From NCBI RefSeq assembly GCF_054482525.1, contig NZ_CM137006.1: DNA of 64,000 bases, one strand, 5' to 3'. Shown here piece after piece: positions 32,025-32,564 of the stretch. Position numbers and translations under genes: made by a program. Numbering within the stretch: the first letter of the stretch is position 1; each line of letters starts with the position of its first letter. Under the pieces are notes generated by a model. The model saw only the letters and a list, made by a program, of their open reading frames with translations. It had not been told where the DNA came from and searched no databases.

Positions 32025-32050
32025 CCCGCCGTAACTGGCGGGCTTTTTTT
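32025..32050 (+). terminator. Orphan rho-independent terminator between minE and ycgI fragment
   Basis: cccgccgtaactggcggg followed by a T-run; no long ORF upstream, so possible small gene or sRNA 3' end. Confidence 0.5.
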
Positions 32051-32083
32051 GCCGCAGAATTTTCCCTTTTAACACCCTGTAAA

Positions 32084-32103
32084 CGAAAACTGCGCCGAAG
32101 CGC
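32084..32103 (-). terminator. Terminator hairpin downstream of ycgI fragment
   Basis: ctgcgc-ttcg-gcgcag followed by T-run on minus strand. Confidence 0.6.
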
Positions 32104-32120
32104 AGTTTAATCGTTGATGG

Positions 32121-32564
32121 TCAGAACGACCAGTTCGCACCAGCCACCGCGTTCCATGGGGATTCCACACCGGCACCATGGCTATACCCCACCCCGAGAT
32201 GCCCGCTTAACGAACTGCTGAATGAGGCTTTAATACCTGCCTGATATATTCCACGTCTGCCCGACAAATCATTGACAAAATTACCGTCATTATTCACTTT
32301 CACCCGGTTATCATCGACAAATTCTTTGCGCACAGCCGCCTTCAGCCACGGCTCAACTTCCATGCCGTTCCCCAGACGCATGTTGTAACTCAGCGTTGCA
32401 CCCAGTTCACGATATATACTGCGGGTATCGACTGATTTCGATTCCATGCCATTGGATAAATGATAGTAGCGTCTAAGTGACCTTAGCTCTGCTGCAACAT
32501 CATCCCGCAGGCACCAGACCAGGGGATTGATCCTGAAGAGACAGCGCAAGTGTATTGTGTTCAC
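32121..32564 (-). pseudogene. ycgI: Autotransporter beta-domain fragment (ycgI-like remnant)
   Basis: 147 aa ORF is only the C-terminal barrel portion ending in aromatic residue; no passenger domain or signal. Confidence 0.55.

Follow-up and report, generated by a model that had tools for sequence, protein, structure and literature searches.

Conservation and published Hfq data point to a candidate small RNA gene between minCDE and the ycgI pseudogene of Escherichia coli

We analysed a 64,000-nucleotide (nt) stretch of DNA (NCBI RefSeq assembly GCF_054482525.1, contig NZ_CM137006.1; hereafter the window), which is the Escherichia coli PCN033 sequence (100% identical over the region tested), and focused on a plus-strand intrinsic terminator at positions 32025-32050, downstream of the minCDE operon. 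The original prediction for this stretch had listed the terminator as a separate one with no long open reading frame (ORF) upstream, and both its coordinates and that description held. The reading we favour, with modest confidence, is that the terminator forms the 3' end of an unannotated Hfq-binding small regulatory RNA (sRNA) gene of about 75 nt (roughly 31975-32050, plus strand), with a 5' end placed by conservation and a 3' end at the T7 run. That an sRNA may end here had been one of two guesses in the original prediction; conservation and the published Hfq entry "minE.ycgI.IGR" (IGR, intergenic region; PMC8175672) now make it the favoured one.

The terminator, identified by scanning and folding, consists of a 6-bp GC stem (CCCGCC/GGCGGG, 32025-32042) with the loop GUAACU, followed by a C and a T7 run (32044-32050; folding free energy, dG, -12.3 kcal/mol). 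With its 6-bp GC stem, C and U7, and with GGUUU directly 5' of the stem, the RNA would end in a typical Hfq-binding module. Between the minE stop codon and the hairpin, the plus strand holds no ORF longer than 40 amino acids (aa), and the 40-aa ORF itself crosses the hairpin. Terminator-like motifs in the 4-kb region were in modest excess over shuffled sequences (8 vs 4.0 +/- 1.9); the case for the element therefore rests on conservation and on the published Hfq data.

Alignment revealed a 57-nt block (31985-32041, plus strand; GCAATTTCATTATTCATTGTTCTCCCATAGGATGAGGTTTCCCGCCGTAACTGGCGG) that is identical in E. coli and Escherichia albertii and comprises an A/U-rich, largely unstructured sequence (GCAAUUUCAUUAUUCAUUGUUCUCCCAUAGGAUGAGGUUU) and most of the hairpin, the rest of the region between minE and the autotransporter gene being unalignable in E. 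albertii. The four-fold degenerate sites of minD and minE showed 23% divergence between the two species, and at a divergence of 0.23 the probability of finding 58 identical neutral bases is about 3e-7. Among three divergent E. coli strains, approximately 31974-32050 was identical, and the spacer upstream carried substitutions and indels. In complete E. coli genomes, the block was 100% identical in 4146 of 5316 records (78%), with one or two base differences in the other 1170 and none below 95% identity, whereas a spacer control of the same length was at least 99% identical in only 158 records (3%) and fell in the 80-90% identity band in 4543 (86%). This genome survey is the unbiased check, since the metagenome sequences had been picked by an exact 25-mer (31997-32021) and their invariance reflects ascertainment. 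The invariant 40 nt 5' of the hairpin should, by folding prediction, be mostly unpaired or at most weakly paired, and they contain an anti-Shine-Dalgarno-like UUCUCCC. As judged from these alignments, the comparisons show strong purifying selection at the nucleotide level on the 40 nt before the hairpin and on most of the hairpin.

The element is single-copy, without paralogues, and no copy was found in phages or genuine plasmids. A repeat, mobile-element, plasmid or phage origin was ruled out on these grounds, the matches labelled as plasmids being large, non-mobilisable, mislabelled chromosomal pieces. None of the records among the genomes surveyed annotates the element, the K-12 MG1655 annotation has no feature between ycgI and minE, and the Rfam 15 covariance models gave no plus-strand match at 31950-32060 even at E<=10, only noise. 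Using blastn and nhmmer on the minE neighbourhoods of 78 other Enterobacteriaceae, we found the element in E. albertii only; in Salmonella, Citrobacter, Kluyvera and others, unrelated DNA follows minE. Three loci of this set from the genus Escherichia (L006, L008 and L010, including E. whittamii and Escherichia sp. E1V33) have neither the autotransporter nor the element, and there a different minE 3' region leads straight into ymgI-proximal sequence. Their lack of the element, despite its presence in the more distant E. albertii, implies either lineage loss or co-acquisition of the element with the autotransporter. By these searches, only E. coli, Shigella included, and E. albertii carry the candidate RNA gene.

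Evidence for a transcript came from published Hfq data on K-12 from RIL-seq, in which interacting RNAs are ligated to one another and then sequenced. The values are those of Supplementary Table 1 of a re-analysis of Melamed 2016 (PMC8175672), and we took the strand of "minE.ycgI.IGR" to be that of minE, judging from the naming convention. In stationary phase, this entry was represented by 137 chimeric fragments and five unique interactions, as against only 12 fragments in exponential phase. Its SIC of 0.8 with k=5 gives S=1.0, so that it was always the second RNA; its sRNA score was 0.276, compared with 0.292 for RybB and 0.228 for Spot42, and its partners were target-like (median of 2 interactions, median SIC of -0.5; PMC8175672). 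The U-tract length listed for it is 7, as measured within 50 nt of the read segments. Because the second terminator is the sole T7 run on the minE strand of the K-12 minE-ycgI intergenic region, we infer that the RIL-seq signal lies there. These published S-chimeras place the RNA in association with Hfq in vivo (PMC8175672).

Two features separate the element from minE (31489-31755, plus strand), the last gene of minCDE according to the ORF list and to the RefSeq annotation of the identical PCN033 locus. The first is the minCDE intrinsic terminator (31780-31812, plus strand; 12-bp stem, T5), for which our scan gave a dG of -19.8 kcal/mol and a z of -7.1; Term-seq in K-12 placed the minE 3' end at 1224224/5(-), mapping to this hairpin (PMC7815308). 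The second is a variable spacer (31813-31957, plus strand) whose base composition is C-rich, G-poor and rut-like (C 31%, G 15%; within 31840-31940, C 36-37%, G 13-15%), and which varies strongly among E. coli, indels included, and cannot be aligned to E. albertii. Published Rho data include a termination region with its peak at K-12 1224064(-), a position that coincides with the -10-like hexamer described below (Rho score 24.9, 800-nt windows), and treatment with bicyclomycin raised downstream reads from 18 to 571, as against 230 to 293 upstream (DirectRNA-seq, 800-nt windows around 1224064, which is a coarse resolution; PMC7815308). These data fit the C-rich, G-poor, rut-like spacer and very low expression in exponential phase, and the spacer probably hosts Rho-dependent termination of minE read-through.

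Upstream of the block we read from the sequence a putative plus-strand promoter (31941-31968), with a -35-like ATAACC (31941-31946), a 16-bp spacer and a -10-like TATACT (31963-31968). The -35-like hexamer sits in a second conserved island (31933-31950; CTGAGTAA(A/T)TAACCTTAT); no E. coli variant alters it, E. albertii has TTAACC in its place, and the 16-bp spacer is polymorphic. The -10-like hexamer occurs as TATCCT, TATTCT, TATGCT and TACACT in E. coli and as CATTCT in E. albertii, with A2 and T6 always kept.

Under the favoured reading, transcription would start near 31975 from this weak promoter of the gene's own and yield an RNA of about 75 nt. The minE intrinsic terminator and the C-rich, Rho-sensitive spacer would insulate it from minCDE. 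Hfq would contact the U-tail and the A/U-rich region, and the invariant single-stranded stretch with UUCUCCC would pair in trans with target mRNAs, mainly in stationary phase, when the RNA would also mainly be expressed. The neighbouring "barrel" is no more than the decaying ycgI pseudogene with its own convergent terminator.

Several observations weigh against this reading. A consensus promoter scan did not call the ATAACC/TATACT pair, which fell below threshold and is weak by consensus, and the -10-like hexamer overlaps third-codon positions shared by two ORFs, an alternative cause of its variation pattern. The RNA folded no better than shuffled sequences (z -0.2 to -1.2). About 22% of E. 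coli carry G32038A, which breaks a stem pair without compensation and takes the hairpin from -12.3 to -5.1 kcal/mol. The element is dispensable, as 5316 of 5426 complete genomes contain it and about 2% do not, and a minor lineage has lost both terminators and the 3' half of the block to a 304-bp deletion. Term-seq data from three conditions (LB at an optical density (OD) of 0.4, LB at OD 2.0, and M63) contain no curated 3' end at the second terminator (K-12 ~1223978; PMC7815308). Finally, the candidate was neither discussed nor validated in PMC8175672, where its sRNA score of 0.28 is moderate. [quoted passage not shown] The original prediction had named a transcript ending at 32050 as the thing to look for. 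No curated Term-seq 3' end lies there, and RIL-seq segments lie within 50 nt of the T7 run, which weakens the idea as regards abundance but does not refute it.

Two of the losses can be described. One element loss is a deletion associated with the insertion sequence (IS) IS1. In E. coli AR_0369 (L161), an IS1 copy lies about 150 bp past the minE stop codon, with ariR and ymgA as the genes that follow; everything from the element through ycgI, ymgJ/I/G/D and ycgH appears to have been lost, presumably by IS-mediated deletion. The 304-bp deletion arose between 10-bp direct repeats (TCATTATTCA; 31991-32000 and 32295-32304) and characterises protein cluster P0005 (for example, GCA_002522105.1), in which the barrel remnant is fused to the minus-strand ORF. 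Strains with the P0005-type deletion are natural knock-outs of the candidate RNA.

The main alternative, though an unlikely one, is that 32025-32050 is a back-stop terminator, or the end of a long 3' untranslated region (UTR) isoform of minCDE, which halts minE read-through before it reaches the convergent autotransporter gene in antisense, any Hfq binding being a by-product of the GC hairpin and its U-tail. The hairpin is indeed the second on the minE strand, 270 nt downstream of minE, and faces a convergent gene with a terminator of its own; read-through past minE exists and is Rho-sensitive; and Term-seq shows no independent 3' end. Plus-strand RNA has also been recovered still further downstream: in Hfq RIL-seq of enteropathogenic E. 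coli (EPEC) E2348/69, "minE.ymgJ.IGR" (minE strand) was joined to ArcZ in 22 chimeras (odds ratio 2710, p=5e-39; PMC8550237). This fragment maps to window 32321-32333 on the plus strand, antisense to the ycgI remnant. Lying inside the remnant on the opposite strand, it indicates plus-strand transcripts running past both terminators in E2348/69. A terminator, however, needs only a hairpin and a U-tract, yet the invariant part is the 40 nt upstream, and it is in the stem alone that a common disruptive variant, G32038A, is tolerated. The block is invariant although the gene that a back-stop would protect is a pseudogene in most strains. The promoter-like conservation upstream of the block and the sRNA-like behaviour in RIL-seq (always the second RNA, with five target-like partners) likewise speak for an sRNA over a back-stop.

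We consider it very unlikely that the conservation reflects a small-protein gene, whether an 18-aa plus-strand peptide (31958-32014; MGILGDDNPAISLFIVLP), whose ORF ends just 5' of the terminator, or a 36-69-aa minus-strand peptide starting at ATG 32001. Both frames are open across the conserved part in E. coli and E. albertii, the variable sites at 31958-31984 are enriched at third codon positions common to both frames, and the invariant block includes a good ribosome-binding site (GGGAG) for the minus-strand ORF, which is annotated here and there. This ORF is probably the "conserved gene" UTI89_C1358 of PMC6206680. Its database homologues, however, come from Escherichia and Shigella only, are 36-103 aa long, and in many E. 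coli are frameshifted after codons ~17-24, leaving unrelated C-termini and lengths. The plus-strand ORF lacks a Shine-Dalgarno sequence and begins with GTT in some sequences. The Prokaryotic Genome Annotation Pipeline (PGAP) annotates neither ORF, and neither has a Pfam match. Counts of synonymous and non-synonymous variants were 5:5 for the plus-strand ORF and 5:7 for the minus-strand ORF. In E. albertii, none of the nine C-terminal codons of the plus-strand ORF has changed at its third position, and the 27 bases of non-coding sequence past its stop codon are as invariant as the bases before it, so the constraint is on nucleotides and not on a peptide. We therefore rejected a coding role for either ORF on the basis of the frameshifts, the lost start codon and the variant counts. 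A leader-peptide attenuator was also rejected, because the gene that comes next is convergent, leaving no plus-strand gene downstream, and because the 18-aa ORF does not keep its start codon.

The minus-strand ORF probably also figured in the UTI89 screen, where the interval enriched for filamentation (1,297,038-1,299,321, approximately window 30000-32560) reached past minCDE into C1358 and the ycgI homologue; the authors could not separate function from linkage to minC in the enrichment of these two (PMC6206680).

In our estimation it is equally improbable that the block works at the DNA level, for instance as a site for protein binding or recombination, or that it is a neutral relic which looks conserved owing to recent transfer. 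Conservation alone cannot tell DNA function from RNA function, and TTCATTATTC resembles half a Fur box, a likeness noted from sequence only. The block lies, however, at the 3' ends of two convergent genes, with no promoter nearby to control, and the strand-specific Hfq RIL-seq signal means that it is transcribed and chaperone-bound. A conserved stretch of 57 nt with diverged flanks on both sides rules out recent transfer of a larger segment.

Least credible is a cis-antisense arrangement of the type I toxin-antitoxin kind, in which the plus-strand RNA would repress the minus-strand ORF by overlapping its ribosome-binding site and start codon. The region is lineage-restricted, and the candidate RNA matches GGGAGAACAAUG and the first ~9 codons of that ORF with full complementarity, a geometry shared with SymR/SymE and type I pairs, where a small ORF has a small RNA encoded across from its ribosome-binding site and start codon. 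The putative toxin, however, is not conserved as a protein (frameshifted, 36-103 aa, no clear transmembrane segment), its promoter is not evident beyond a marginal TTTACA-N16-AATTCT seen by eye, and the RIL-seq partners are other loci, hence action in trans. Most E. coli type I systems have paralogues, and this element has none. We know of no toxicity and no minus-strand transcript for this ORF.

Of the known classes of RNA, the candidate most resembles intergenic Hfq sRNAs such as RybB and MicA, as well as the RIL-seq candidates narP.ccmH.IGR and fliC.fliA.IGR, which fall in the same score range. Like them, it would be about 75 nt long with a Rho-independent terminator, U7 and a U/A-rich stretch 5' of it; it shares a long conserved, unstructured possible seed, a position as second RNA throughout the RIL-seq data, and enrichment in stationary phase. 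It differs from them in being limited to E. coli and E. albertii rather than enterobacteria-wide, in lacking an Rfam match, in the unusual length of its invariant region (40 nt plus hairpin), and in having a terminator with a common destabilising variant. The candidate also has points in common with sRNAs derived from 3' UTRs, such as CpxQ and SdhX: it lies 3' of an operon on the same strand and could in principle be cut from read-through, and an RN↓WUU-type RNase E motif (AA↓UUU) can be read at 31987-31991. Such sRNAs normally share the terminator of their parent gene. By contrast, a strong intrinsic terminator and a Rho-sensitive, non-conserved spacer part the candidate from minE, and promoter-like conservation lies upstream of it.

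On the other side of the terminator, a 147-aa ORF with a GTG start (32121-32564, minus strand) had been put forward in the original prediction as a barrel-only autotransporter remnant. It is indeed an autotransporter remnant, with residues 34-125 matching the Pfam autotransporter beta-domain PF03797 (E=1.6e-11), but it is not a barrel: the match is confined to profile positions 152-254 of 255, which amounts to less than half of a barrel, and only 115 residues (about the last 40% of the profile) derive from the autotransporter, the others being read-through of non-coding DNA. Having no signal peptide, passenger domain or complete 12-strand barrel, the ORF does not qualify as a functional type Va autotransporter. 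The fragment is the already known, ordinary K-12 pseudogene ycgI (b4521).

The composition of this ORF is explained by a 3072-bp deletion that we mapped against the locus of strain 746 (L003). That strain has, at the same site, an intact gene for an autotransporter of 1126 aa, in which AIDA repeats and a pertactin domain accompany the whole PF03797 barrel; PGAP names it YpjA/EhaD, and its DNA is ~93% identical to K-12 ypjA, which lies elsewhere in the genome. BLAST of the window against L003 broke at L003 7765/10838, placing the deletion junction at window 32465/32466, with at most 1-2 nt of homology. This single deletion (L003 7766-10837) took 1011 codons, the start codon and 36 nt of the 5' UTR. 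What is left of ycgI (32121-32465, minus strand) corresponds to the last 115 codons of a YpjA/EhaD-like gene, as indicated by the PGAP pseudogene annotation, PF03797 and collinearity with the 3' end of the strain 746 gene. The ~32 codons before it (32466-32564, minus strand) are former upstream non-coding DNA that now supplies, in frame, the N-terminus of the 147-aa ORF (ORF list, BLAST and Pfam). The remnant thus resembles the YpjA/EhaD AIDA-type adhesins in being collinear with K-12 ycgI and the 3' end of the 1126-aa gene, and differs from them in keeping 115 of 1126 codons.

The terminator hairpin ascribed to the remnant in the original prediction is also real, although it lies at 32087-32108 rather than 32084-32103. 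This intrinsic terminator of the autotransporter gene (minus strand; AAACUGCGC-UUCG-GCGCAGUUU) has a UUCG tetraloop, a dG of -14 kcal/mol and a z of -4.3, begins 12 nt past the stop codon of the 147-aa ORF, and also occurs 3' of the intact strain 746 gene and in E. albertii. The window allele of ycgI is not frameshifted, unlike the K-12 allele; its intact frame does not imply function. The remnant is still decaying, as seen from a further internal deletion in one strain (19KM1766N, in which the extra deletion lies inside the barrel remnant and the conserved element is intact) and from loss of the 3' end in another lineage.

On the plus strand, the locus runs from minC, minD and minE through the intrinsic terminator and the variable spacer to the second terminator. 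Past 32050 come, all on the minus strand, the autotransporter hairpin, the barrel ORF, an ORF that PGAP calls hypothetical, and ymgJ (32580-32764), annotated as frameshifted in the window strain. Beyond ymgJ lie a ymgI-like ORF (32865-33038), ymgG and ymgD, all on the plus strand, and then a second autotransporter pseudogene on the minus strand; K-12 MG1655 has the same gene order on the opposite strand. The suggestion in the original prediction that ymgI or ymgJ might end at 32050 does not agree with this layout. In the K-12 and PCN033 annotations, both genes are found past the remnant, in the ycgI-ymgG interval, 500-1000 nt further on than the terminator. The start of ymgI already lies downstream of the terminator; ymgJ runs on the minus strand, and a transcript that it shared with the remnant would stop at the minus-strand hairpin.

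We made several further observations in this neighbourhood. The ORF at the ymgI position is a variant that PGAP labels only as "hypothetical protein", and the stretch 32560-33040 is very AT-rich by eye. The second autotransporter pseudogene (33781-36429, minus strand) occupies the ycgH position, is split into ORFs of 174 and 700 aa, and is named "ECIAI39_1904 family autotransporter adhesin, internal stop" by PGAP. Two decayed adhesin genes therefore flank the ymgD-ymgG-ymgI/J cluster.

As to what the RNA might do, we tentatively propose, at something short of even confidence, a stationary-phase, Hfq-dependent sRNA specific to E. coli and E. albertii that arrived or arose with the autotransporter island and whose function, now independent of the decayed adhesin, is exerted through the 40-nt invariant seed with its anti-Shine-Dalgarno motif. 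More speculatively, its position next to minCDE and the filamentation enrichment in UTI89 (PMC6206680) may reflect a role in cell division or in the envelope. Of the two parts of this locus, the pseudogene was already known; what is new is the uncharacterised candidate RNA, earlier visible only as one row of a supplementary table. If confirmed, it would add a strongly constrained, uncharacterised Hfq-binding sRNA to the gene list of E. coli K-12, at a textbook locus right after minCDE, and it would provide a clean case of a young, lineage-restricted sRNA gene that has outlived the horizontally acquired adhesin gene next to it.

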